In this document: one piece after another, positions 3,483 to 42,384 of the stretch
Layout: every line of letters begins with the position of its first letter
Numbering within the stretch: position 1 is the stretch's first letter
IMG/VR virus record: IMGVR_UViG_3300045988_017255
Direction: 5' to 3' (one strand)
Source of the DNA: a virus
Length of the DNA: 42,384 nt
Notes under the pieces: model-generated
Databases searched by the model: none
What the model was told of the DNA's origin: nothing
What the model saw: only the letters and a program-made list of their open reading frames with translations
Made by a program: the position numbers and the translations under genes

Positions 3483-4676
3483 TCAATCGTCATGCAGAAG
3501 CACCGCCTTTTCTCCGGTAAACTTCTCCCACCGGTCAATAATGACATCGGCATACTTCGGATCGTACTCCATGCAGAAAGCGTGTCTGCCATTCTGCTCC
3601 GCTGCCATAATCGTTGTTCCAGATCCAGCGAACAGGTCGAGAACATTCTCACCCGGCTTACTGGAGCACTGCATCTGGTAATCAAACAGCTTAATCGGCT
3701 TCATGGTCGGATGCTCCGCAGACTTGACGGGCTTATCAAAATTCAGCACGGTTGTCTGCCTGCGGTTCTTGAAGAAGTAGTGCTTCTTGCCTTCCGTCCA
3801 TCCGTACAGGCAAGGTTCGTGCGCTTCCTCTTCAATCTCGCTCTCACCATACAGGCAAGGCTCATGTTTCCACTGGAAATCCTGTCTCCCCATAACAAGG
3901 GAGTTTTTCACCCAGATCAGGCACTGCCGGACACGCAGCATCGCATCTCTGCATGCGCCTCGGAAGTTATACCCCTCGCTGTCTGCGTGCCAGATGTAGA
4001 ACGGAGCACCGGGCTTCATGACCATCGCCGCATTGGAGAACGCATCCGTCAGGAAACGCCTGAAGGCCGTATCCTCCATATTGTCGTTCTTAATCTTCCC
4101 GGCGGTGCCCTGATAGTCCACATTGTACGGAGGATCGGTGAGAAGAAGATCGATTTGTGCCCCCCCCACAAGCTTTTGTACATCAGTCAGAGATGTACTG
4201 TCTCCGCACATCAAGCGATGGTCTCCAAGCTGATACACATCGCCCAGCTTGCTCTTCGGCTCTGCCGGTAAAACAGGATCGTAGTTGTCCTCTACCACTG
4301 ACGTGTCGAGTTCATCACGCAGACCCCAATCAAAGTCAAAAGCAGACAAGTCAAGCCCCGGCAGCTCATCAGCCAGCAGGTCAAAGTCCCAGTCGCTCTC
4401 GTTTCTCTTGTTATCCACCAGCCGCAGGGCGTTCACCTGTTCCGGTGTCAGATCGTCCACGCAGACGCAAGGTACTTCTTCCATGCCCAGCTTCTCTGCC
4501 GCCAGAGCGCGGCAGTGGCCGATTACAATCACACCGTCACGGTCAATCACAATCGGCTGCACAAAGCCGTATTGCTTGATGCTCTCCGCAACGTTTTTGA
4601 TTTGCCGTTTATCATGCTTTTTTGCGTTGCTGGCATACGGCACAATATCCGCAAGCCGCCGTTTTGTGATTTCCAT
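3483..4676 (-). CDS. ParB-like nuclease domain fused to a DNA methyltransferase (DPPY motif)
   Basis: The N-terminus (VPYASNAKKHD...QYGFVQPIVID) is ParB/Srx-like. LLLTDPPYNV is catalytic motif IV and DLFAGSGTT is the AdoMet motif I. ATG at 4676 has a GGAGGA SD upstream. Confidence 0.85.
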   Translation of the reverse strand: MEITKRRLADIVPYASNAKKHDKRQIKNVAESIKQYGFVQPIVIDRDGVIVIGHCRALAAEKLGMEEVPCVCVDDLTPEQVNALRLVDNKRNESDWDFDLLADELPGLDLSAFDFDWGLRDELDTSVVEDNYDPVLPAEPKSKLGDVYQLGDHRLMCGDSTSLTDVQKLVGGAQIDLLLTDPPYNVDYQGTAGKIKNDNMEDTAFRRFLTDAFSNAAMVMKPGAPFYIWHADSEGYNFRGACRDAMLRVRQCLIWVKNSLVMGRQDFQWKHEPCLYGESEIEEEAHEPCLYGWTEGKKHYFFKNRRQTTVLNFDKPVKSAEHPTMKPIKLFDYQMQCSSKPGENVLDLFAGSGTTIMAAEQNGRHAFCMEYDPKYADVIIDRWEKFTGEKAVLLHDD

Positions 4677-4796
4677 GCTTTCCTCCTTGTTTGTCACCAG
4701 CCCCCACCCCTTGGCTACAGTAACAGTCTTTACCCTCCCATGCGGGCCTCTTGGACCTCTCAAACATGGGCTACACACTATTTTTGATATTTTCTA

Positions 4797-7914: not shown

Positions 7915-8360
7915 CCGGCCCACCTCACGATCTTTTCCCGCACGCCCCATTGGAGTGCATCCTCGTGGCTGTCAAAATACAGATCCAGCCGATTCCCGGC
8001 AATGGCTCCGCCGGTGTCCTGCACGGTGTATGTATGGCCGTCCAGTTCGATTTCCGTACCCATCGGCAGCACATCCGGGTCTGCGGCGATCGTCACGCCC
8101 TGGGTGGCCTTTTCGCCGGTGGCTGTGTAGCCATTTGCATACGCCCCACAGCATTTTTCACAGGGGCAGTACGCAGTGACGGTAAATACGCACGTCCGCG
8201 TCTCCTGGGGTCCCTGCGGCTCATCGCGGGGCAGAACCACCCTCGGCGGCACAACTACAGTCTCCGGCGTTTGTCCGCTGTACTCGGTGGCGGCCGCAAT
8301 GCCCAATGATCCCAAGGTTGCCGCAAGCAGCGCAGTGATTAATAGTGCCTTGCTTTTCAT
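7911..8360 (-). CDS. Secreted 3D-domain (MltA/RlpA-like double-psi beta-barrel) protein
   Basis: N-terminal signal peptide (MKSKALLITALLAATLGSLG). C-terminal TAYCPC..GYTATG..IAADP..LPMGT..YTVQDTGGAI..LDLYF matches the 3D-domain motif pattern. Confidence 0.7.
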   Translation of the reverse strand: MKSKALLITALLAATLGSLGIAAATEYSGQTPETVVVPPRVVLPRDEPQGPQETRTCVFTVTAYCPCEKCCGAYANGYTATGEKATQGVTIAADPDVLPMGTEIELDGHTYTVQDTGGAIAGNRLDLYFDSHEDALQWGVREKIVRWAG

Positions 8361-9166
8361 CTTGCTACCTCCTCCATCGATATTTGCCCATCATCGTAGT
8401 GAGCAAGCATTTTTTCATTTGCAAGGCGGCAGAAATTTCTATCAATTTCAAATCCATATGCCTTTCTTCCCAACTCGCACGCAGCCCGAAGGGTAGCACC
8501 GGAACCAGCACAAGGATCGATCACTACGTCCACCGGATCAGTAAATATTTCGATTAATCTTTTTAAAACCTTCACTGGTTTTTGTGTGGGATGTATTTTT
8601 GGAATATCTTTACCATCCCGCTCCCACTGGAACCAATCGAATACCATTTTCCCGGTGCCGCGAATAGCCTTTCCGTTTTCGTCCATCTCCCGACCGTTGT
8701 TAAATTTGGGGAGCTTGTCACGATAAAGCACAACAGCAAATTCCGTTGCCCCCACAATGCGCATATTGGCTTTGAGCACTTGCGCAGAATAATTCTTGCA
8801 GAAGAAAATCGGATACCAATTTTTGAATCCATACCGAGCCCCGTACTCCGCCACCGTTTGAATTTGATCAAAAGCACAAAATACAATCATTGCCGGGGCT
8901 TTGCCCCGTTGCTTAGGCTCTGGCTTCAGTAGCCGCGAGCAAAAATGCATATATTCTGCGATCTTAAAATATCCATCGGAATTAAAAAAACGACTTTTTG
9001 CAAATTTGCTTTCTCCATTGGCATTGTCGCCACCGTTATACCACACGGGGTTGCTGCCATAGGCATCTGTACCAATGTTGTATGGTATATCCGCAATCAC
9101 AAGCTGTGCCTTTGGAATCCCGTATTTTTTGTAATTTTGAAAATTATCGTGGTAAAGTTTCACCAT
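8357..9166 (-). CDS. DNA methyltransferase (beta-class N6A/N4C type)
   Basis: Motif IV is ADIPYNIG near the N-terminus and the AdoMet motif VIDPCAGSGAT is near the C-terminus. Confidence 0.85.
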   Translation of the reverse strand: MVKLYHDNFQNYKKYGIPKAQLVIADIPYNIGTDAYGSNPVWYNGGDNANGESKFAKSRFFNSDGYFKIAEYMHFCSRLLKPEPKQRGKAPAMIVFCAFDQIQTVAEYGARYGFKNWYPIFFCKNYSAQVLKANMRIVGATEFAVVLYRDKLPKFNNGREMDENGKAIRGTGKMVFDWFQWERDGKDIPKIHPTQKPVKVLKRLIEIFTDPVDVVIDPCAGSGATLRAACELGRKAYGFEIDRNFCRLANEKMLAHYDDGQISMEEVAR

Positions 9167-10667: not shown

Positions 10668-11744
10668 TCAATACCTCACTCCGATGTAGTCCAATACTCT
10701 GGCGTAGCCAAGCCCCTTTTCAGTTGGCTTCCACAGGCCGTCCACAGGGTCATACGCCCCACCGCCAATGCAAAATTCGTAGTGCTTCGGGTGCGTATGT
10801 TTCATCCTCTCAAAACGATTCTCGCCTTTTTCCAGGTGGGCTCCAAATGCGCAGAACATACAGCCCGATCGCTGACATCCCGTACAGTGCAGCGGGCATT
10901 CCGTCAGCGTCGCATCGTAGTCGTTCTCGCCATCGCTTGCTACGATTTCGCCGTACACGCTGGCATATGGGATTCGATTGCCCACAATATACCGCAGCAC
11001 ATCCTGCTCCGTCCAAAAGCTCATCGGCTTTCCCATCGGCCTCTTGCCCTCAAAGGCATTGCAGCCTGTGCGTTGCCATTTCAGCATGCGCAGCCGACTT
11101 TCTTCCGCCATCAACGCTGTCATGGGGTGGAGCCCTGTTTTGGCCTCGAACTTGTGCATGGGCCCCTTTTTCATCACCTTGCAGCATGAATCCGACACGA
11201 GAAACGGCGCATGAACTAAACCCCCCCACTTTTCGCAGTTGTACGGGGATTTTTCTCCATTTTTATCGAGGTATTCCCCGCGTAAACGCTGTGCCGATTT
11301 CCCATCTGGATTAATTCGAGCATTTCCTACATACGCGGCCACCTCTTTGCTCACGATGCTGTACCCGTACTTCGTCACCACCTGTCGAATGTTCATCTTT
11401 GGGCGCAGGCGGAAAAGGTTTACGTTCACGCGGTGGAACTCCCTCCGTAGCCAGTCAGCGCACTCATTGACGAACTTCTGTATCTCTGGATATTCCAGCC
11501 CCGTGTTCGCAAACGCCAAGTTCAGCTCCCACGGCGGTGTCCTGAAGCTCGACAGGTACAACGCCGCCAAATACGCCAGCACCGTGCTGTCCTTTCCACC
11601 GGAAAAACTGACGTAACACTGTCCGCCCCACGCGGTGTACCACTCATCCAGTTTCTCAACGCTGGTGATGACCTTGTCATCCAAATCAAGGGATAGCAAT
11701 TTCTTGGCAGCCTCGCTCGTCAACGGAGTGTTAAACCGTTCCAT
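10668..11744 (-). CDS. PAPS reductase / PP-loop ATP-pyrophosphatase family protein with C-terminal Cys cluster (IbrA/DndC-like)
   Basis: The SFSGGKDS PP-loop motif is present. The C-terminus has CTGCQRSGCMFCAF. ATG at 11744 has a GGAGGTGG SD. Confidence 0.75.
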   Translation of the reverse strand: MERFNTPLTSEAAKKLLSLDLDDKVITSVEKLDEWYTAWGGQCYVSFSGGKDSTVLAYLAALYLSSFRTPPWELNLAFANTGLEYPEIQKFVNECADWLRREFHRVNVNLFRLRPKMNIRQVVTKYGYSIVSKEVAAYVGNARINPDGKSAQRLRGEYLDKNGEKSPYNCEKWGGLVHAPFLVSDSCCKVMKKGPMHKFEAKTGLHPMTALMAEESRLRMLKWQRTGCNAFEGKRPMGKPMSFWTEQDVLRYIVGNRIPYASVYGEIVASDGENDYDATLTECPLHCTGCQRSGCMFCAFGAHLEKGENRFERMKHTHPKHYEFCIGGGAYDPVDGLWKPTEKGLGYARVLDYIGVRY

Positions 11745-12027
11745 CTCCCGCCACCTCCATCTGCCCATCCACCTGCATGGCCTTTGCAAGCATGCTGTAT
11801 GTGGACAGCTCGTCCATAGCCCGCTTGCGGTACATGGCAAGGAGCATCTTCTTCTCCTCGTCCGTCTCCGCCAGTTTATACCCGCCATCCGGCAGAGCCA
11901 CAATGGGCACCCCCTGCCGCCGCTGCGCCCGGATCATTCGCCGGTTCTCTCTGTCCGGCATACCGGTCAATGCTTCAAGGTTTTTCCGGGTGTATGTAAT
12001 GCCGGGAATCATGCGTAATGTGGTCAT
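11731..12027 (-). CDS. Hypothetical protein (98 aa)
   Basis: ATG at 12027 overlaps the DnaC-like stop (ATGA) and has a GGAGG SD. Confidence 0.55.
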   Translation of the reverse strand: MTTLRMIPGITYTRKNLEALTGMPDRENRRMIRAQRRQGVPIVALPDGGYKLAETDEEKKMLLAMYRKRAMDELSTYSMLAKAMQVDGQMEVAGDGTV

Positions 12028-17073: not shown

Positions 17074-17271
17074 TTACTCCTCCCGCTCCGCAATCCACTT
17101 GTCCAGCAGATTGGGGAAAATCTGAAAAACACGCCGTTTCCCTCCGATAACGCACAGGCCAAAAGGATACACACCCTGTTCAATCCCGTTTGACAGCGTG
17201 TCCTGCGAAATGCTCAGTCCATGCGCCCGAAGATGCTCCATGCACTCTTGCAGCGACATCGTCTTAATCAT
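17074..17271 (-). CDS. Excisionase/MerR-like HTH protein
   Basis: 65 aa. It follows cro and the ATG overlaps the cro stop. The small size fits an Xis-like winged-helix protein. Confidence 0.5.
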   Translation of the reverse strand: MIKTMSLQECMEHLRAHGLSISQDTLSNGIEQGVYPFGLCVIGGKRRVFQIFPNLLDKWIAEREE

Positions 17272-17486
17272 CGTTCCTCCTTATTCGCCGCCCGGATAGC
17301 TTCCGCAGCAGCCTTGATCTCCTCCTCCGACACGCCGTACAGCTTCGCCATTTTCTTGTAATACTTCCGTGCCGGTGCCCAGTCTCCGTATTCCCAATGT
17401 CTTACGCAGGACTGGTCAACAAACAGCTTCTTGCCTACCTGTGTGCAGGAAAGATTTGCTCTATCCCGCATCTCTCTCAATGTCAA
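17268..17486 (-). CDS. Cro-like XRE-family HTH regulator
   Basis: MTLREMRDRANLSCTQVGKKLFVDQSCVRHWEYG is an HTH_XRE pattern. TTG start with a GGAGGG SD. It is the first gene of the minus-strand early array, divergent from the lysogeny module. Confidence 0.7.
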   Translation of the reverse strand: MTLREMRDRANLSCTQVGKKLFVDQSCVRHWEYGDWAPARKYYKKMAKLYGVSEEEIKAAAEAIRAANKEER

Positions 17487-18742: not shown

Positions 18743-19144
18743 ATGCCAAAAAGAGATACAGTTCGGCCCAACATGAATTCAATAGCAGAGAAGGTTTCGG
18801 CTAAAAGTTGGAGCGAAGCGTCGTTTTCGCAAATGGTTGGTAAACACAGGAGATGGCTAAGTGAGGTTAGGCGCGATAAGAACCTCCCATCCCCCAAGGA
18901 AGCCGCGAAAATGTGCGTCCTGCTGCAGGTTGATCCAGAGGACATATTGCTGGAGCAGGCAGATATCGAGCTGGTGCGGGGCCTGCTGGAAAATGAAAAA
19001 GCCCCCGGCATAAATGCCGAGGGGTTCGTGCCGACTATGAAGGATTGGGAAGAACAGGCCGAAAACTGGACGGATGACCAAATTCTTCAAGCGATGCAGA
19101 AGCTTGTGGAGATTCAGCAGAGGAGGCGCAGCGATGGGCGTTGA
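18743..19144 (+). CDS. CI-like XRE-family HTH repressor
   Basis: SIAEKVSAKSWSEASFSQMVGKHRRWLSEVRRDKNLPSPKEAAKMCVLLQVDPEDIL is an HTH_XRE pattern. Lies in the lysogeny module. Confidence 0.65.
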   Translation: MPKRDTVRPNMNSIAEKVSAKSWSEASFSQMVGKHRRWLSEVRRDKNLPSPKEAAKMCVLLQVDPEDILLEQADIELVRGLLENEKAPGINAEGFVPTMKDWEEQAENWTDDQILQAMQKLVEIQQRRRSDGR

Positions 19145-19703: not shown

Positions 19704-20297
19704 ATGGAGAAATCGTTGCAGGACACTTGCCGGGACGCAAAACTGGAACAGCACATCACGGCGCAGGAGATAGCAGACCAATCCGGTGTGCCTTTGTCCA
19801 GCGTTAACAACTTTTTTGCATCCACATCTAAAGCACCGGGCGTGTATGCGGCTGGTCCCATATGCAGGGTGCTGGGGGTGTCTATGGACCGTTACTTTGG
19901 CATTGTAGAGGTTGTTTTGGCGCAAGACCAAATCAAGCAGCTCCAGCAAGTCCATGACGAGGATGTGCGCCTTGCACGGATAGAGGGCGCATACGATGAG
20001 CTGTCCAAATCAGCAGAGGAGCAGAAGAAAAAAGCAAGGCGGCAGCGCACGATGCTGTATATCACATCGCTGCTGTCCGCTATCCTGCTGGGTATAGTTA
20101 CATGGTATGTGGCGCTTGATTACCGTGTGCAGGACGAAGGCCTAATCCGATCCAGGACAGCCGGTACGATTGCATGGATTGTCATTGCGCTTTTGGCGGT
20201 GGGTATCGGCGTACTTACATCCGTGCTATTGTCCACTCTTACGGCGGGCAAAAAAACCACACAAGGCGAGGAAGCAGAAAATGAGCAACTGCATTAA
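19704..20297 (+). CDS. Membrane-anchored XRE-family HTH regulator
   Basis: N-terminal HTH (ITAQEIADQSGVPLSSVNNFF), a coiled-coil middle, and two C-terminal TM segments (LYITSLLSAILLGIVTWYV; IAWIVIALLAVGIGVLTSVLL). Confidence 0.65.
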   Translation: MEKSLQDTCRDAKLEQHITAQEIADQSGVPLSSVNNFFASTSKAPGVYAAGPICRVLGVSMDRYFGIVEVVLAQDQIKQLQQVHDEDVRLARIEGAYDELSKSAEEQKKKARRQRTMLYITSLLSAILLGIVTWYVALDYRVQDEGLIRSRTAGTIAWIVIALLAVGIGVLTSVLLSTLTAGKKTTQGEEAENEQLH

Positions 20298-21372
20298 ATG
20301 CGGAACAACTCTTGTCCCGGGCGCCGTATATTGCCATCTCTGTGGCAAAAAACAGGTAACAGAGCGGCGCAAGGCATTGAAGCGGGCCAACGGCACCGGA
20401 ACTGTATACAAACTGGCGGGGCGTAGAAAATCGCCTTGGGTGGCCGCAAAAAACAAAGTGATTATCGGGCATTATGAGCGCAAAACGGCCGCGCTGGACG
20501 CTTTGGAGCGATTGAACGGCAAGAGCTTAACGGAGCGGTATAATATGACCTTTGCAGAAGTGTTTGATGCGTGGAAAGCAGAGCATTACAAGGAGATTGG
20601 CAAGCAGGGGATAGAATCATATAACAATGCCTACCGCATATTTACGCCGCTCCACGGGAAAAAGTTTCGTGATCTCCGCACCGCAGACTTTCAGGCCGTA
20701 CTTGACCCACACATGACCAAGAGCCATTCCACCGTGAACAAGTATAAGCAGCTCATAACGCAGATGTCGAACTGGGCAATCCGGGAGGAAATCTGCACGA
20801 CAAATTTTGCAAAGTTTGTCCGGCTGCCAGAAAATGTAAAAAAAGAAAAGGACATCTTCACGGTGGAAGATATCCGTAAATTGGAATCCGACAACAGCGA
20901 TGCGGCGAAAATTGTCTTGATGCTGCTGGCAACGGGTATGCGTATCGGAGAACTGTTTGCCCTACCTCTGGCAGACTGTCACGGCGATTATGTGATCGGC
21001 GGCGAAAAAACCGAAGCCGGCAGAAACCGAATTATCCCCATCCGCCCGGAGGGGAAACAATACTTTGCCTATTTTGCGAAGCAAGCAACGGGGGAGCTGC
21101 TTTTATCCGGCTACGATGGGCAAAAAGTCCCGGCGAACTTCCGCAGGCGAGATTTTTACCCGCTCCTTGACAGGCTGGGAATAGAGCGCAAGACCCCGCA
21201 CGCAACACGCCACACATACGCATCCCGGGCGGTAAAAGAGGGATTGCCCCCGGAAATGCTGCAAAAAATACTCGGACACGCCGATTATTCCACCACCGCA
21301 AACATATATACGCACATCGACGCGCAGACACTTGTGGATGCTGTTACTAACACGTTACTAACAAATAAATAA
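20281..21372 (+). CDS. int: Tyrosine integrase with N-terminal zinc ribbon
   Basis: CIKCG...CHLCG ribbon at the N-terminus. Catalytic pattern ATGMRIGE (R), HATRHTYAS (HxxR), LGHADYSTTANIYTH (H...Y). Adjacent to attP. Confidence 0.9.
   Translation: MSNCIKCGTTLVPGAVYCHLCGKKQVTERRKALKRANGTGTVYKLAGRRKSPWVAAKNKVIIGHYERKTAALDALERLNGKSLTERYNMTFAEVFDAWKAEHYKEIGKQGIESYNNAYRIFTPLHGKKFRDLRTADFQAVLDPHMTKSHSTVNKYKQLITQMSNWAIREEICTTNFAKFVRLPENVKKEKDIFTVEDIRKLESDNSDAAKIVLMLLATGMRIGELFALPLADCHGDYVIGGEKTEAGRNRIIPIRPEGKQYFAYFAKQATGELLLSGYDGQKVPANFRRRDFYPLLDRLGIERKTPHATRHTYASRAVKEGLPPEMLQKILGHADYSTTANIYTHIDAQTLVDAVTNTLLTNK
21343..21363 (+). repeat. Arm-type integrase site candidates: GTTACTAACA x2, 11-nt phasing
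   Basis: Copies at 21343-21352 and 21354-21363, inside the 3' end of int. Confidence 0.5.
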
Positions 21373-26472: not shown

Positions 26473-27126
26473 TTACCGGATATACCCCTCAAAGCCGGCT
26501 GCCTTGAGCTTGGCCAGCATCCTCTCCGCGTTGGCGCGGACGGCAAATGCACCCACCTGCACCCGGTAGAGTTTGTCGGTGGCGGCGGGCTTAGGCTGCT
26601 CCTTCTCCTTATAGGTCACGCCGAAGTAGTCGCAGATACCCCGGGCAATGGCCTCTCCGATGTCAACCGTATGCTCCACGATCCACTTGGCGGTGGTGGC
26701 GTTGTCGTGGAACTCGCACTCGATATAGGTCGTAGGGGCGCTGGGCACCCGCACCTCGTACAGGGAGGCATCCACCCGGATATTCTCGCTGGTGCCGGGG
26801 GTCACCGGGGCCAGCCGGGAAAAGATAGCCTTGCAGGCCTTCATGCCCTCGCCGCTGCTGTTAAAGCAGAACATGCGAGTACCGCTGACCTTGCCGTTAA
26901 AGGCGTTGGTGTGGATGGGCACATGGAGATCCGCGCCGAAGGCGTTGGATTCCTTGCACTTATCCTGCATGGAGGGCATATGCCCTACCTTCACGGTCAC
27001 GCCGCTGCGCTCCAGGGCGGCGCGGCAGGCATCGGCAATTTTACCGCACTGGACGGCCTCGGTGGTGTTGCCGTAGGCATAGCGGTTGTCGGTCTGATTG
27101 CTGGGAGACAGATATACTTTAGCCAT
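26473..27126 (-). CDS. Endolysin: N-acetylmuramoyl-L-alanine amidase (Amidase_3-like) with C-terminal SPOR-like domain
   Basis: MAKVYLSPSNQ...HVPIHTNA...ECEFHDN carries amidase motifs. The C-terminal YRVQVGAFAVRANAERMLAKLKAAGFEGYI is SPOR-like. Follows the holin. Confidence 0.85.
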   Translation of the reverse strand: MAKVYLSPSNQTDNRYAYGNTTEAVQCGKIADACRAALERSGVTVKVGHMPSMQDKCKESNAFGADLHVPIHTNAFNGKVSGTRMFCFNSSGEGMKACKAIFSRLAPVTPGTSENIRVDASLYEVRVPSAPTTYIECEFHDNATTAKWIVEHTVDIGEAIARGICDYFGVTYKEKEQPKPAATDKLYRVQVGAFAVRANAERMLAKLKAAGFEGYIR

Positions 27127-27334
27127 TTTCATTTTCCTCCTTGTTATAGGTGGCGGTGGAGATGCACAGCACCGCGCCGAAAAAGGTGTCCACGGCGGTG
27201 ATGGTGGTGACGATCTCCTCCGAGTAGGGCCAGGCCCACACGGCGGACAGGGCCGCGTACAACGTGGCGATGGCCGGCAGGACGATGATGACCACCCACT
27301 TGAGAATGTCATACAGCTTGTCAGGGATTTTCAT
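27119..27334 (-). CDS. Holin (Dp-1-type)
   Basis: MKIPDKLYDILKWVVIIVLPAIATLYAALSAVWAWPY...TFFGAVLCIS. It has two TM segments and lies directly upstream of the amidase. Confidence 0.75.
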   Translation of the reverse strand: MKIPDKLYDILKWVVIIVLPAIATLYAALSAVWAWPYSEEIVTTITAVDTFFGAVLCISTATYNKEENENG

Positions 27335-38304: not shown

Positions 38305-39177
38305 TTAGCCCCCCACTGCCGGAGTGATGGAGCCGACAACCACGCCGTCAATGCGCTCGGCGAACAACACCATGCCGTTGATAACGGTATCGGATGCGGT
38401 CATGTTGGTGTAATCGGGTTCCTCATGGATACCGATATAACCGGTGGCGTCGGTGGTGAAGTTGAACACCTCGCCCAGATCTGCGCCGTTCACAGGGATG
38501 TAGTACAGGACGATGTTGTCCTTGGCGGTGGCGTAAATCTTTCCCTTGGGGACGCTGGAGTTCAGAATCACGGTGCCCAGGCCGAGAAAGTTCTCGACAT
38601 AGGTCATGCCGAAAGCGGTCTGCAGGGTGATGTTGGCAGTTGCGAGATAGTCCGCAACATCCAGCGGGTTCATGAAATACACTGCGCCGATCTCGTCATC
38701 CTCGAACAGCACCTGCAGCTGGCCCCATGCCTGAGCCAAGGTCGCCTGGAAGGTAGCACCGCTGGCCGTGCCAGTACCGGTTGCGAGGAAGCCAAAGAAA
38801 TCCTTGCGGATACCTTTCTGCACGTCCTTCAGCATTTCATCGGTGGTCATTTCGACGGCCTGATCGTAGCCGCGATCAGTGATTGCCTCGGCAGAAGTGG
38901 CCTTACGCCACTTCTTCAAGGTGATCTCCTTGTAGTTCACAGCCTCGGTCTTGTACTTGCTCAGAGGGATGGTCTCGCCCTCGGCCACAGCACCGTCTTC
39001 CAGAGTGCCGGTAGCCTTGTAGCTCTTGAGCACAGTACCGGCCTGCTTGGCGATCTTGCGGGTAACGCCCAGAGCCTCCATCAACTTCTTGATGGAATAG
39101 CCGAACATTTCGGTAAACTCGATCTCGCGAACACGGGCAAGATCTTCCTTCTTAATCAGCTTAGGATCAACAGCCAT
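38305..39177 (-). CDS. Major capsid protein
   Basis: 290 aa, directly after the scaffold gene. Size and position fit A118-like capsids. Confidence 0.85.
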   Translation of the reverse strand: MAVDPKLIKKEDLARVREIEFTEMFGYSIKKLMEALGVTRKIAKQAGTVLKSYKATGTLEDGAVAEGETIPLSKYKTEAVNYKEITLKKWRKATSAEAITDRGYDQAVEMTTDEMLKDVQKGIRKDFFGFLATGTGTASGATFQATLAQAWGQLQVLFEDDEIGAVYFMNPLDVADYLATANITLQTAFGMTYVENFLGLGTVILNSSVPKGKIYATAKDNIVLYYIPVNGADLGEVFNFTTDATGYIGIHEEPDYTNMTASDTVINGMVLFAERIDGVVVGSITPAVGG

Positions 39178-39179
39178 TT

Positions 39180-39773
39180 TTATTCTTCCTTTCTAAACAA
39201 ATCCATATTTGCGGCGATTGCAGCGCGCCGCTCCGTTCTGTCGGTGATTTTCATAATCTCGTCCTTGGTCATAGGCTTGCCGCCCTCGTTGAGCCGTGCG
39301 CCCATGTCCAGCCGGACAGCAGGCTTAGAAACAAGGCTCTTATAGGTGCCGTCTACGAGAGCGTCAAGGCTCTTGGTGTCCTTGATCTTCTCGCCGTCCA
39401 GCTCCAAGGCAGACATTTCCTCGCCGCATCCGCGCATGGCAAGGTCGAGATTTGCGCCGGTGATGTTTTTGCTCTCAAAGTAAGCCCGGACGGCTTTTTC
39501 CTTTGCCGCCTTGCTCTCCTTTGCCGTGATGTCGGTCTTAAAGGCTTCAAAGGCCGAGTGTTCCTTCTCGTACTTCTCCTTATAACCGCCGTCACCTGCC
39601 GCCTTGAGGTCGTCCAACTGCTTCTGAACGCCGGGCAGCTTCTCCGCATCGTCCTTGTAGCGGGTCACATCCGCCTTTAGGCCGTCCACAGTGTCGGTAT
39701 GCGCTTCGATGATGGTATCTACCTGCTCATCGGTGAGACCCATACCCTTCAAAAGTTTGCGTGTAAGTGCCAT
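39180..39773 (-). CDS. Scaffolding protein (GP20-like)
   Basis: 197 aa, helical and charged. MALTRKLLKGMGLTDEQVDTIIEAHTDTVDGLK... is a GP20-type N-terminus. Confidence 0.8.
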   Translation of the reverse strand: MALTRKLLKGMGLTDEQVDTIIEAHTDTVDGLKADVTRYKDDAEKLPGVQKQLDDLKAAGDGGYKEKYEKEHSAFEAFKTDITAKESKAAKEKAVRAYFESKNITGANLDLAMRGCGEEMSALELDGEKIKDTKSLDALVDGTYKSLVSKPAVRLDMGARLNEGGKPMTKDEIMKITDRTERRAAIAANMDLFRKEE

Positions 39774-39854
39774 GACACTATCTCCTTTTCTTTGGCCGCG
39801 TTTCTTCGCGGACGATAGTTTTTATAAAAACCGCTGTGCTTCGCGGGTTTTACT

Positions 39855-39899
39855 TAAAACAAAAGAGCCAACCACCGAGAATTCCTCAGCAGTTGGCTC
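39855..39899 (-). terminator. Intrinsic terminator inside the head module
   Basis: On the minus strand: stem GAGCCAAC...GTTGGCTC with an inner CTGAG/CTCGG helix, then TTTTGTTTT. Confidence 0.65.
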
Positions 39900-39940
39900 C
39901 TATTGCCCTTTCCCGCGCCCTATTGCGCGGAAGATGTTAT

Positions 39941-40117
39941 TTACTTATCGTTGATGTGCGGCATTACCGCCGCAAGAATAAACTCTTTCACACTTACGCC
40001 TTGCCGTTCTGCGGCATCGCGTATTTTTTTGCCAATTTCTTTATCCATCCTCACCGTTATGGTGTCCTGTTTTCGGTTGTACTTCGTGCTTGCCCTTATC
40101 TGCGCCTCTGTTGCCAT
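39941..40117 (-). CDS. Ribbon-helix-helix (Arc/Mnt/CopG-like) DNA-binding protein, 58 aa
   Basis: ATG at 40117 with an AAGGAGG SD. ...QDTITVRMDKEIGKKIRDAAERQGVSVKEFILAAV shows the RHH pattern. Confidence 0.6.
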   Translation of the reverse strand: MATEAQIRASTKYNRKQDTITVRMDKEIGKKIRDAAERQGVSVKEFILAAVMPHINDK

Positions 40118-40139
40118 ACTGCAAACCTCCTTTTGCAAC

Positions 40140-40168
40140 ATGGTATCACATTCCTTGCAATAAGTCAA
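40140..40168 (-). promoter_or_regulatory. Candidate promoter of the RHH gene (TTGACT-N17-TACCAT)
   Basis: On the minus strand, -35 is at 40163-40168 and -10 at 40140-40145. Confidence 0.45.
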
Positions 40169-40178
40169 CTTATACATT

Positions 40179-40210
40179 TTCAACAATCCAATCTGCAATT
40201 TATTGTTGAA
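40179..40210. promoter_or_regulatory. 9-bp inverted repeat TTCAACAAT-N14-ATTGTTGAA between divergent promoters (candidate operator)
   Basis: Perfect arms at 40179-40187 and 40202-40210. Confidence 0.55.
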
Positions 40211-40219
40211 TATCCCATC

Positions 40220-40248
40220 TTGAAATATAAGTAAACTTATATTATCAT
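40220..40248 (+). promoter_or_regulatory. Candidate promoter (TTGAAA-N17-TATCAT)
   Basis: -35 at 40220-40225 and -10 at 40243-40248. It drives two small plus-strand genes. Confidence 0.5.
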
Positions 40249-40265
40249 ATACTCACAAGGAACAA

Positions 40266-40496
40266 ATGAGACAGGCAAAAGCCGGAAAGGAAATTGACAT
40301 GAACGCCATTGAAATAAAAGCTTATGAAATTGGCATCAAGGAGGCGCACGAGCAAAGGAAAATTGTTCCCGCTTGCAAAAGTAACGCGATGTACGGTCTC
40401 ATGGAAGAAGTAAAAAACGGACTTTTGCCACTTATTAAGGCTTATGATGCAGGAGTTGCTTACGAGATCAATCGTCAAACGAAACTCGGGTTTTAA
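40266..40496 (+). CDS. Unknown 76-aa protein (moron, plus strand)
   Basis: ORF with an AAGGA SD. An alternative ATG lies at 40299. AT-rich. Confidence 0.5.
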   Translation: MRQAKAGKEIDMNAIEIKAYEIGIKEAHEQRKIVPACKSNAMYGLMEEVKNGLLPLIKAYDAGVAYEINRQTKLGF

Positions 40497-40545
40497 CTCA
40501 AACTCCCAACCAGTAAGTTACGATGGTAGAAAGGAAAACAAAGCA

Positions 40546-40719
40546 ATGAATATTAACTTGAAAACAAGGACGATTAAACTGTCCCGCCGTGAAGTAATCG
40601 ACTTACTCCTTATGCTTGATACCAACTATGAAAGCGGAAAGTGGAACGCGTTACACGACAAAATCAAGGAACAGTTGGACATTCAAGACAGTAAAGATAA
40701 CGATTTCCCCGCCCCTTAA
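40546..40719 (+). CDS. Unknown 57-aa protein (moron, plus strand)
   Basis: MNINLKTRTIKLSRREVIDLLLMLDTNYESGKW... The stop lies inside the terminator loop. Confidence 0.5.
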   Translation: MNINLKTRTIKLSRREVIDLLLMLDTNYESGKWNALHDKIKEQLDIQDSKDNDFPAP

Positions 40720-40736
40720 CCGGGGCGGTTTCTTTT
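40709..40736 (+). terminator. Intrinsic terminator
   Basis: Stem CCGCCCC / GGGGCGG, then TTTCTTTT. Confidence 0.7.
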
Positions 40737-40869
40737 ATGTTTGAGTGCTGTATTTGATTGTTTTCTTAACCTCTAAGACAATGTACCCATCGCCCTTGCG
40801 GCGGATTTCAGCATCGTTTCCGCGCTTCAAAATTGCATCGATTGCCTTTTTGACTTCTTCCCAGTTCAA
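40735..40869 (-). CDS. Small protein (44 aa) coupled to the MuF-like gene
   Basis: TTG start overlapping the upstream TGA. (M)NWEEVKKAIDAILKRGNDAEIRRKGDGYIVLEVKKTIKYSTQT. Not in the ORF track. Confidence 0.35.
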   Translation of the reverse strand: MNWEEVKKAIDAILKRGNDAEIRRKGDGYIVLEVKKTIKYSTQT

Positions 40870-42041
40870 TACAGCACCTTCATTCTTTCCCGCTGCTCCG
40901 GCAGTCCTGCCGCCACGCTGAACGCTTTGTATTTCGCGTTTAACCGCCGTAGCCTTATGTTTACCGCAGTCTCATCTTCATGCAATCCTGCTGCCTTGTA
41001 GGCGGCTTTTTCGCGCTTTAGCTTTCTAACCGTTCGTTCAATACGGCGCTGCATCTGGGTTGCCTCGTATGCCGTGTAATCCTTGCCATCAAACGTGCAT
41101 CCGTGGTCATCATCGATGTGCTCCAACTGTTCATTCGTGTAAGTGCGCTCGGACACGCCCTCAACCCACGGAAACCGCCTGTGGCGGCAGTTGGCCCCTT
41201 CCAGACCGTCAACAGCGCCCAGGCCGCAAACATCATAAATGCTCGGGTAAATGTCCCCTACACGGACGCTGTAAACACGTCCTTGCCAATCCTTATGCGA
41301 TGACCACGGTGACGGTCCCGGCTTATCTCGCGCGCCAACATGGGCCGATACTTCAAAATAGGGCGTATCCAGATATTCTGAGGATTGCTCCGTATACTTG
41401 GCGCAGATTTGAGATACGCCGGTCATTACGGCTCTTCGCACGGCAACATCGACATGATCCCGATGGCCGCTCTCGTAGTCAACCACTTTCAGACCGCTGT
41501 CCGCGAGTTCCTTTACCGCCGTTTTAATTGCCTGATTGTAGTTAATTGCACCGCTCTGCACCTGCAACGCTGCGCTGTCAAGTGCCCATTGGTACGCTTT
41601 GGCAGGTGGGAGCATCGTACGACCTGCGTCCACCAAAAAGCCAATCGAAGCGGTGATGTTTCGGAACACGTCTTGCGTTTGCCGTTTGATGGCGTCAATG
41701 GTGGTTGCATCCACCAGCACGTCAGGCTGTGTTACACGGGCAAGGTCTATGACCTCGGTGTAATACTTTTGGTTGCGCTCCACCACATCGTCTATCAGCT
41801 CGTTTAGTTTTTTCTCGCTGATGCCGGTAGTCTGGCGTATGGCCTTTTCAATCTCTTTCAGATCGATGGCGTGTGACCGCAGCGCCTTGATGTCCTGCAC
41901 CGTAACCTCGTTCAGCTCGTCCCGCAGCTTCAGCCGGGAACATATCTCCATCAGCAGGGTGTCCTCAAGGCCTCGGTATAACTCCGCCAGCTCTTCTGGA
42001 AGGGCATCCAGCAGTTGAGGGGTGAATGGATACTGGCTCAT
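40866..42041 (-). CDS. Minor head protein (SPP1 gp7 / Mu F-like)
   Basis: About 391 aa, downstream of portal across the contig junction. Pattern ...AINYNQAIKTAVKELADSGL...HVGARD...CRHR... I place the start at the ATG at 42041; the track ORF uses a TTG at 42065. Confidence 0.8.
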   Translation of the reverse strand: MSQYPFTPQLLDALPEELAELYRGLEDTLLMEICSRLKLRDELNEVTVQDIKALRSHAIDLKEIEKAIRQTTGISEKKLNELIDDVVERNQKYYTEVIDLARVTQPDVLVDATTIDAIKRQTQDVFRNITASIGFLVDAGRTMLPPAKAYQWALDSAALQVQSGAINYNQAIKTAVKELADSGLKVVDYESGHRDHVDVAVRRAVMTGVSQICAKYTEQSSEYLDTPYFEVSAHVGARDKPGPSPWSSHKDWQGRVYSVRVGDIYPSIYDVCGLGAVDGLEGANCRHRRFPWVEGVSERTYTNEQLEHIDDDHGCTFDGKDYTAYEATQMQRRIERTVRKLKREKAAYKAAGLHEDETAVNIRLRRLNAKYKAFSVAAGLPEQRERMKVLY

Positions 42042-42127
42042 TTTCCATAGCCTAAAAATACCCAATTTGGGCTTTCATCTGTACCAGTGTTTACCCAAAA
42101 AGTCCCAGTTTTTTCTCCATAACCCAT
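42038..42127 (-). CDS. Mini-ORF (29 aa)
   Basis: MGYGEKTGTFWVNTGTDESPNWVFLGYGK. GGGGAGG SD 8 nt upstream. Start and stop overlap the neighbouring genes (TAATG, ATGA). Confidence 0.35.
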   Translation of the reverse strand: MGYGEKTGTFWVNTGTDESPNWVFLGYGK

Positions 42128-42306
42128 TACTCTACCTCCCCAATGTCAAAAATATCTTCTATGTTTACATTAGATTTTGCAATAATTCTCCCTTTGCCGC
42201 CTGCATAAAAATCGAGCATGTGTCCGTTCAGAAATCCAACAAAAAAGCCATTCGGCCAAATAGGTGGATTGTCGCAAAGTACAGACAAATTCGATATTTT
42301 GTGCAT
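42127..42306 (-). CDS. Small hypothetical protein (59 aa)
   Basis: MHKISNLSVLCDNPPIWPNGFFVGFLNGHMLDFYAGGKGRIIAKSNVNIEDIFDIGEVE. AT-rich, with a weak SD. Lies between portal and the MuF-like gene. Confidence 0.35.
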   Translation of the reverse strand: MHKISNLSVLCDNPPIWPNGFFVGFLNGHMLDFYAGGKGRIIAKSNVNIEDIFDIGEVE

Positions 42307-42329
42307 GTGAATGAAAAGAGAATATTCCT

Positions 42330-42384
42330 TATCTTGTGCAACAGCCCGGGCTCGACAAAAAAGATTTTACCATTCCTATGTAAT
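42330..42384. repeat. Terminal direct repeat, copy 2 (identical to 1-55)
   Basis: Exact 55-nt match to the window start. Confidence 0.95.

Follow-up and report, generated by a model that had tools for sequence, protein, structure and literature searches.

A mobile phage cassette with a constant ribbon-helix-helix gene and interchangeable small genes resembles anti-CRISPR loci in position and layout

The immI region of phage P22 is situated among late genes. It encodes two ribbon-helix-helix (RHH) repressors and one large antirepressor, Ant. The repressor Mnt is encoded divergently and Arc by the first gene of the ant operon. The operators lie within divergent promoters, and expression is an early burst followed by shut-off. 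A comparable layout is present in the virus record IMGVR_UViG_3300045988_017255. This stretch of 42,384 nucleotides, referred to as the window, is the complete, circularly permuted genome of a temperate phage. A reading of the sequence alone (the sequence-only reading) had described an AT-richer insert between the genes of a MuF-type minor head protein and the scaffold protein. It contained a small RHH gene, divergent promoters and two small plus-strand genes, and an analogy to immI was proposed. The comparison with related phages presented here identifies the insert as a horizontally mobile, moron-type cassette. A constant RHH gene (RHH58), a control region and a terminator frame one or two interchangeable slots for cargo genes.

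Anti-CRISPR (acr) loci are another point of reference. In Mu-like Pseudomonas phages, the acr region is located between the gene G homologue and the protease/scaffold gene (PMC3993853). It has a conserved promoter, a regulator with more than 90% identity and many combinations of small genes, and it is missing in some relatives (PMC3993853). The region is low in GC (PMC4378225). Anti-CRISPR-associated (Aca) regulators bind inverted repeats within strong core promoters (PMC9410906). Aca14 is an RHH protein among them; it has been shown to bind an AT-rich inverted repeat of 20 bp in core promoters and to repress two operons, which hold putative anti-defence genes (Feussner et al. 2026, NAR; PMC13551039).

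The limits of the insert were obtained from MT837048.1 (locus L001), the closest relative in GenBank. There, window position 39933 abuts 40749 directly; the insert therefore comprises the 815 bp in between (Table 1). The left flank with the capsid and scaffold genes is 98-99% identical in MT837048.1, the right flank with the MuF-type gene 77%. The GC content is 0.407 in the insert and 0.53 in each flank, in agreement with the AT-richer insert described before. The left edge is located 7 nt beyond the stop codon of RHH58. The right edge falls in the last codons of a conserved open reading frame (ORF) of 43/44 amino acids (aa) after the MuF-type gene. This ORF is kept in the cassette-free MT837048.1 and adjoins every cassette; scans of Pfam, PHROGs, NCBIfam and PADLOC gave no usable match for the 44-aa ORF. 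Empty junctions were also found in further relatives. The insert has its own promoter and terminator, lies between late genes, deviates in composition and is absent from a close relative. These are the attributes of a moron, as in the lambdoid phages HK97 and HK022, in which promoter-gene-terminator units of deviant composition lie between late genes and are absent from close relatives. The cassette differs from the lambdoid morons by a dedicated putative repressor and a standardised socket for gene exchange, consisting of leader and terminator.

Protein searches, look-ups of the encoding contigs, a scan of IMG/VR and a pattern scan of metagenomes were used to collect loci. They yielded 58 further cassette loci, a few of which are one contig present in two collections. 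In each of the 58, RHH58 has at least 91% identity and the 148-bp control region can be aligned over its entire length. All cassettes are placed between the 43/44-aa ORF and a gut-2-like motif upstream of the scaffold gene. The phage backbones differ: the minor head protein belongs to PF04233 or to PF06152, and the scaffold and capsid genes differ too.

Behind the constant regulator, the cargo is exchanged. Slot 1 contains p65 in 44 loci and unrelated proteins of 82, 63, 121, 73 or 77 aa elsewhere. Between slot 1 and the constant terminator lies slot 2, which is vacant in some cassettes and occupied by p57 or another 65-aa protein in the rest. In total, eight unrelated cargo families were found, six in slot 1 and two in slot 2. 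The swap point is exact, as the cassette variants diverge right at the cargo start codon. Cassettes without p57 lack window positions 40503-40706 or 40503-40675, and the terminator directly follows p65. The sequence-only reading had suggested that related phages might carry a different cargo at the MuF/scaffold junction, and this is the case. A conserved DNA-binding regulator with variable small genes at a fixed genomic position is also the arrangement of acr-aca loci. The exchange of at least eight unrelated families of small proteins while the regulator stays constant bears the signature of an accessory locus in an arms race, in the manner of acr-aca, rather than that of a dedicated immunity switch.

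The RHH58 gene is monocistronic. It stands alone between its own promoter and a hairpin of the backbone, with a strong Shine-Dalgarno sequence (AAGGAGG) 8 nt ahead of the ATG. The protein was matched by the profiles of HicB (PF05534, 23.7 bits) and TacA1 (23.3 bits), both above the gathering score of 21, and by a NikA-like profile (23.2 bits). CopG_antitoxin, RHH_1, ParD, PHROG 582 'Arc-like repressor' and the RHH parts of NCBIfam MobA/RelB matched as well. All these matches cover residues of about 15-55 and place RHH58 in the RHH (MetJ/Arc/CopG) superfamily, as had been read from the sequence. It does not belong to the Arc family (PF03869), for which 16.9 bits were obtained versus a gathering score of 20.4; phmmer against Arc in the PDB gave an E value of 0.94. 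The ratio of nonsynonymous to synonymous substitution rates (dN/dS) of 0.11 indicates purifying selection. An RHH gene beside a p65 homologue in locus L006 has no detectable relatedness to RHH58.

The promoters were sought in a scan of 39500-41100. Two sigma-70-type sites were found, compared to 2.1 expected by chance. They are the two divergent promoters of the sequence-only reading. As their number equals the chance expectation, support for them has to come from the comparison with relatives. For this purpose 28 distinct control regions were aligned, in which 38% of the columns vary overall. The -35 hexamer of the RHH promoter is invariant. Its spacer (40146-40159) is hypervariable, with changes in 11 of 14 columns and 5.7 non-reference cells per column; a promoter spacer free of other constraints would be expected to vary in this way. 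The spacer of the cargo promoter is filled by the palindrome O2, which has just 3 singleton changes in the 28 variants. In the related palindrome O1, on the -35 hexamer of the RHH promoter, none of the 14 columns varies.

This 14-bp palindrome, ATAAGTnnACTTAT, had been missed before. Its two copies (40160-40173 and 40227-40240) are the sole matches in the 42-kb window with up to 2 mismatches allowed. A palindrome pair with identical arms occurred in 2 of 20,000 shuffles. Every cassette locus has the O1-O2 pair, invariably 67 bp apart, and none of the other loci fetched has it; a scan of GTDB species genomes with the twin-palindrome pattern had no match. O2 extends to a perfect 9+2+9 repeat (40224-40243). 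A conserved promoter spacer points to a second constraint, most simply a bound protein, and the proposed operator was therefore moved to O1 and O2. RHH58 is the candidate for the protein bound at both sites.

The originally proposed operator was a 9-bp inverted repeat between the two promoters. The repeat is present and perfect (40179-40187/40202-40210), but it is not the conserved element. Among the 28 variants, 7 of the 18 arm columns vary, the same rate as the background, and compensatory changes in the arms were not found among the relatives. It overlaps neither core promoter, and a perfect 9-bp repeat arises in 2.5% of shuffles of the 148-bp intergenic region. From the alignment, ATAAGTnnACTTAT is the better operator candidate. 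Copies of either motif are absent elsewhere in the window, including the main immunity region, and therefore there is no sign of a control of the cassette by the main repressor. TGCA/TTGCAA repeats in the RHH promoter were also considered as operators and rejected, being unconserved in L005 or the L025 group.

The constant leader precedes every cargo type and determines the reading of gene 1. An ATG at 40266 runs into a TGA in 27 of the 28 variants, and the homologues have 65-68 aa. Gene 1 is therefore p65 with a start at 40299 and not the 76-aa gene first described; the 57-aa gene stands. This minimal start-stop ORF (40266-40271; ATG-TGA behind a ribosome binding site) precedes the cargo start and may serve translational control or have arisen by chance. 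In the window, a T-to-A change opens the ATG-TGA into the in-frame 76-aa reading. At the other end of the unit, the predicted plus-strand terminator was found with an all-GC stem of 7 bp (40709-40728), a U-tract and a free energy of -16 kcal/mol. The minus strand has no U-tract.

Table 1. Features of the cassette, its flanks and the phage genome. Positions refer to the window.
Feature	Position	Strand	Description
Whole cassette	39934..40748	none	815 bp, GC 0.407, absent from MT837048.1
RHH58	39941..40117	minus	58-aa ribbon-helix-helix protein, constant anchor regulator; proposed repressor of both promoters
RHH promoter	40140..40168	minus	TTGACT-17-TACCAT, TGTG extended -10 at 40147-40150
O1 palindrome	40160..40173	none	ATAAGT-CA-ACTTAT, centred on the -35 of the RHH promoter; proposed autoregulatory operator
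Inverted repeat of the sequence-only reading	40179..40210	none	TTCAACAAT-N14-ATTGTTGAA, between the two -35 hexamers; role doubtful
Cargo promoter	40220..40248	plus	TTGAAA-17-TATCAT; TTGACA in some variants
O2 palindrome	40227..40240	none	ATAAGT-AA-ACTTAT, fills the spacer of the cargo promoter; proposed operator
Common leader/5' untranslated region	40249..40298	plus	With ribosome binding site; constant before every cargo type; includes ATG 40266
p65, slot 1	40299..40496	plus	65 aa, three-helix protein
p57, slot 2 (optional)	40546..40719	plus	57 aa, two-helix protein
Intrinsic terminator of the cargo unit	40709..40736	plus	Constant cassette part, unidirectional
Backbone flank, conserved 43/44-aa ORF	40735..40869	minus	Last few codons replaced by the insert
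Backbone flank, RNA elements	39863..39935	minus	gut-2-RNA-like motif 39889-39935 and strong terminator-like hairpin 39863-39901, both ahead of the scaffold gene
PF06152 MuF-type minor head protein	40866-42065	minus	Head module continues across the window ends
PF06810 scaffold protein	39180-39773	minus	
Major head protein	38305-39177	minus	Followed by tail genes
SPP1-type portal	63-1466	minus	
Terminase	1471-2751	minus	
Amidase	26473-27312	minus	
Tyrosine integrase	20170-21372		
Helix-turn-helix protein	17268-17486	minus	Near the integrase
Helix-turn-helix protein	18743-19144	plus	Near the integrase

The cassette shares many traits with the acr-aca loci of the JBD30 group with Aca1. The map position is equivalent, after small head genes of the MuF/G type and before the scaffold gene. 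Low GC, a conserved promoter and regulator, variable unrelated small genes, empty relatives and repeats inside the core promoter are common to both. O1 and O2 correspond to the conserved inverted repeats inside the core of a constitutive-type promoter. The systems differ in the regulator, RHH in the cassette and helix-turn-helix (HTH) in the Mu-like phages. They also differ in the orientation of the cargo unit, which is antisense to the late genes in the cassette, and in the hosts, gut Oscillospirales. The assignment to gut Oscillospirales (Firmicutes) is suggested solely by two Oscillospirales metagenome-assembled genomes (MAGs) with p65 homologues.

An RHH regulator of the Aca type offers a further comparison. 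Like RHH58, Aca14 is a small RHH protein with an N-terminal extension, and the segment 'YN.K..TITVR' is common to both. BLASTP of RHH58 against Aca14 from P. multocida (WP_005725436.1) gave 35% identity over 31 aa with a single-pair E value of 2e-4, a weak similarity. The extended O2 is a 20-bp AT-rich palindrome, identical to the Aca14 site at 13 of 20 positions according to our own count. Differences concern gene order and operator position. Aca14 is encoded inside the operon it controls, in Proteobacteria, whereas RHH58 is divergent. The Aca14 repeat overlaps the -10, whereas the cassette repeats cover a -35 and a spacer. On balance, the cassette may be taken as an Aca-like, RHH-repressed locus in a position equivalent to the acr locus of Mu-like Pseudomonas phages; this analogy is part of the best reading.

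The cassette is very probably a mobile, self-regulated accessory element in which RHH58 acts at O1 and O2. The following mechanism is proposed. Upon entry of the phage DNA into an RHH-free cell, the host RNA polymerase would fire the near-consensus cargo promoter and produce an early burst of the small proteins. RHH58 would be made from its own weaker promoter and later also by read-through of the late operon, because the gene lies on the late strand. Binding to O1 at its own -35 and to O2 in the spacer of the cargo promoter would turn both promoters off. Together with the plus-strand terminator, repression would avoid head-on antisense transcription into the portal/MuF late transcript. Repression would also keep the expression in the lysogen low. 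We lean towards cargo proteins as counter-defence or establishment effectors that are delivered as an early burst and then repressed.

Both cargo proteins of the window are small helical proteins. The AlphaFold2 model of p65 has three helices with a predicted local distance difference test (pLDDT) score of 92.9, that of p57 has two helices with a pLDDT of 78.3. The dN/dS values of 0.23 for p65 and 0.05 for p57 indicate purifying selection on both. By tblastn, GenBank phages had no match to p65 or p57, and plasmids none to p65.

Outside the cassette, the cargo families lie in early or accessory gene arrays. An exhaustive profile search with p65 resulted in 18 representative clusters in all. They are small proteins except for one polyvalent protein of 1435 aa, in which ArdC-N, an M78 peptidase, primase modules and YodL are combined with a p65-like domain. 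Its residues 1213-1274 align to p65 with 39% identity and an hhalign probability of 94.5%. The non-cassette homologues of p65 (about 71-74% identical) are always followed by a YopX-like protein of 163-180 aa. In 4 loci, p65 homologues are located directly after a primase gene. Homologues of p57 are part of early arrays with YopX, DUF932 and an SNF2 helicase. A 65-aa gene upstream of a p57 homologue in locus L012 was tested as p65, and it is not p65.

The neighbours of the other families are of a similar kind. In 7 of 11 loci of the 73-aa family, the next gene is a 121-aa family homologue with 48% identity, and an orphan N6 DNA methylase is at most 3 genes away in 10 of the 11. For the 82-aa family, 5 of 13 loci have a protein with LPD18, a 'large polyvalent protein-associated domain', at a distance of 2-3 genes. 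Dulem virus 34 also encodes a member of the 121-aa family, in a small islet that separates its lysis genes from its immunity genes. For polyvalent proteins and their domains, an early effector role in establishment and anti-restriction has been proposed (Iyer et al. 2017, PMC5512222). The p65-like domain inside one of them and the LPD18 protein near the 82-aa family connect the cassette to these proteins. The cassette modules are, in contrast, free-standing and under proposed transcriptional control, not domains of a delivered polyprotein.

A single cargo protein had a match in a defence database. The 121-aa cargo (locus L031, 1955-2320) weakly matches the C-terminal part of Cas5_IIId of PADLOC, over nearly its full length (E 1.2e-3, 16.1 bits). 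A sequence search of the PDB gave no support for this match. If real, it would suggest a mimic of a Cas fragment; it is a lead, not a finding.

Several observations weigh against counter-defence as the role of the cargo and against the likeness to Aca. None of the cargo proteins, that is p65, p57 and six others, had a usable match to a known anti-defence, Acr or other family in Pfam, PHROGs, NCBIfam and PADLOC, with dbAPIS/AntiDefenseFinder not covered. Accordingly no cargo is a known Acr, a difference from the acr loci. The remote-homology and structure searches that the sequence-only reading had proposed for the two plus-strand proteins led to no family or fold: p65 and p57 models against the PDB, and p65 also against BFVD, had no match with E < 1. 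The cargo proteins are not acidic DNA mimics, with isoelectric points of 5.6 to 9.3. The association with methylases and polyvalent-protein domains is circumstantial, and the linkage of p65 to primase could equally mean a role in replication. RHH58 is divergent, whereas the canonical regulator is encoded downstream as the last gene of the same operon. The weak similarity between RHH58 and Aca14 could reflect merely the common RHH fold.

Expression from the prophage is an unlikely explanation, though the least unlikely of the alternatives. RHH58 would set a steady level of the cargo in the lysogen, which would protect the host or prophage by superinfection exclusion or against competitors, or alter the host physiology. 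This agrees with the classic moron anatomy: own promoter and terminator, low GC, a site between late genes and absence from the relative. Prophage hotspots with variable cargo can carry defence genes (PMC9122126), and homologues of p65 and of the 121-aa protein are also located near an integrase or in immunity-proximal islets. It is opposed by the lack of PADLOC matches, save the weak Cas5_IIId match of the 121-aa cargo, and by the proteins themselves, which have 57-121 aa and no transmembrane segment or enzymatic domain. Several homologues are encoded in lytic early operons, co-directional with replication genes, and the methylases and polyvalent-protein domains in the neighbourhood point to the invader's side of the conflict. 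The primase linkage leads to another explanation: the cargo may be an accessory of replication or early metabolism, e.g. a helper of primase or helicase loading, without a role in conflict, and the cassette a regulated extra copy. A p65-like domain fused to primase in P0116, beside the 4 primase-linked loci, is in line with this. A primase of that type is not present near the cassette, however, and the phage uses an IstB/DnaC-like loader. In sister phages the slots hold unrelated proteins or nothing, which means that the function can be dispensed with or exchanged. p57 and the other cargo families have no linkage to replication. A replication accessory is therefore improbable.

The immI analogy of the sequence-only reading raises the possibility of a secondary switch, in which the plus-strand proteins would be small antirepressors of the main repressor and held off by the RHH protein. 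Its layout is present: an RHH gene of a putative repressor, divergent promoters with operator-like palindromes inside the core promoters and a location among late genes. Small antirepressors are known in other temperate phages. The analogy ends with the number of RHH genes, one instead of two, with the Arc family, in view of the sub-threshold scores of RHH58, and with the kind of cargo. The plus unit begins with the gene of the all-helical p65. Domains of the antirepressor type (ANT, KilAC, Bro) are absent from all eight cargo families, which bears out the earlier remark that the plus-strand proteins resemble no antirepressor, and an Ant-type gene was not found. Above all, the cargo is interchangeable: P22 has one dedicated antirepressor, whereas tiny genes of eight unrelated families are swapped behind one regulator here. 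The same p65 occurs on very different backbones, and elsewhere the cargo homologues are ordinary genes of early arrays without RHH58. The phage already has a conventional HTH switch beside its integrase. A secondary switch is improbable, slightly more so than a replication accessory. A type II toxin-antitoxin module with RHH58 as antitoxin would explain why the best RHH matches include antitoxin families (the C-terminal part of HicB, TacA1, RelB-like). It is contradicted by the gene order, since the RHH gene shares its transcript with no other gene; its would-be partners are transcribed divergently, vary between cassettes and have no toxin domain. Such a module is highly improbable. The reading as an Aca-like cassette with early counter-defence or establishment effectors is preferred over these explanations.

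The junction that receives the cassette has elements of its own. The sequence-only reading had placed a second terminator behind the RHH gene. This hairpin (39863-39901) is real, with a U-tract, a free energy of -29.4 kcal/mol and a z score of -7.3. It is located outside the insert and belongs to the backbone, as it is also present in the cassette-free MT837048.1. It would end the RHH transcript though it is not insert-borne. On the late strand, the hairpin separates the MuF-side genes from the scaffold and capsid genes, which is an odd place before the most-needed head genes. This suggests attenuation or antitermination, RNA processing, or a downstream promoter. Beside the hairpin, a full-length match to the Rfam gut-2 RNA (RF02990) was found at 39889-39935 on the minus strand, with 31.5 bits under the gathering score of 39.8. 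Dulem virus 33 has gut-2 RNA twice above the threshold (L002, 5074-5121 and 428-475), one copy at the same junction. In locus L025 (3369-3428), GP20-b RNA (RF03003, 55.8 bits) is situated upstream of the scaffold gene. The orphan RNA motifs gut-2 and GP20-b appear to be head-operon elements of phages. The Rfam scan found no RNA family within the cassette.

Some cassette loci have further particularities at this site. An extra 121-aa HExxH protein (phrog_1233) is encoded between the RHH gene and the scaffold gene of L037 (2775-3140). In L021 (138-1844), the MuF protein encoded immediately upstream of the cassette is a MuF polymorphic toxin with an ADP-ribosyltransferase toxin domain.

Beyond the cassette, located between the MuF-type gene and the scaffold gene, the head module of the window contains a second AT-rich gap (GC about 0.38-0.40). 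It covers 42066-42384 and 1-62 and separates the portal gene from the MuF-type gene. A 59-aa ORF in it (42127-42306, minus strand) matches no family. The gap may be another accessory slot. In the major head gene, an in-frame stretch of 171 bp or 57 codons (38644-38814) is missing from the otherwise 98-99% identical MT837048.1. The early region encodes two DNA methylases, one with a ParB-N domain, and a PAPS-reductase-domain protein (3483-4778, 8357-9166, 10668-11903). DNA methylases and PAPS-reductase-domain proteins are gene types often tied to DNA modification or anti-restriction. The two HTH proteins together with the integrase constitute the conventional lysogeny region of the phage.

To our knowledge, anti-defence genes of phages infecting strict anaerobes in the human gut are almost unknown, because they encode small proteins without detectable homologues. 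It is a tentative proposal that RHH58 is the anchor of anti-defence islands that form a family not recognised before, in temperate phages of gut Oscillospirales, and that their socket has sampled at least eight new counter-defence families. If true, p65 would be a counter-defence family with two other forms in circulation, a primase-linked early gene and a domain within conjugative polyvalent proteins. Guilt by association with the cassette would then give access to anti-defence biology in a clade for which hardly any is known. The loci can be searched for with the RHH gene or the ATAAGTnnACTTAT pair, a handle that yields eight candidate effector families. The cassette would have an RHH regulator in a role demonstrated so far for the Aca14 family only, and it would represent a convergence with the Mu-like Pseudomonas phages on the same head-module junction for such genes. 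Should the cargo serve defence or antirepression instead, the locus would still be a clear case from nature of a modular expression socket, buffered by a repressor, within an essential late operon.

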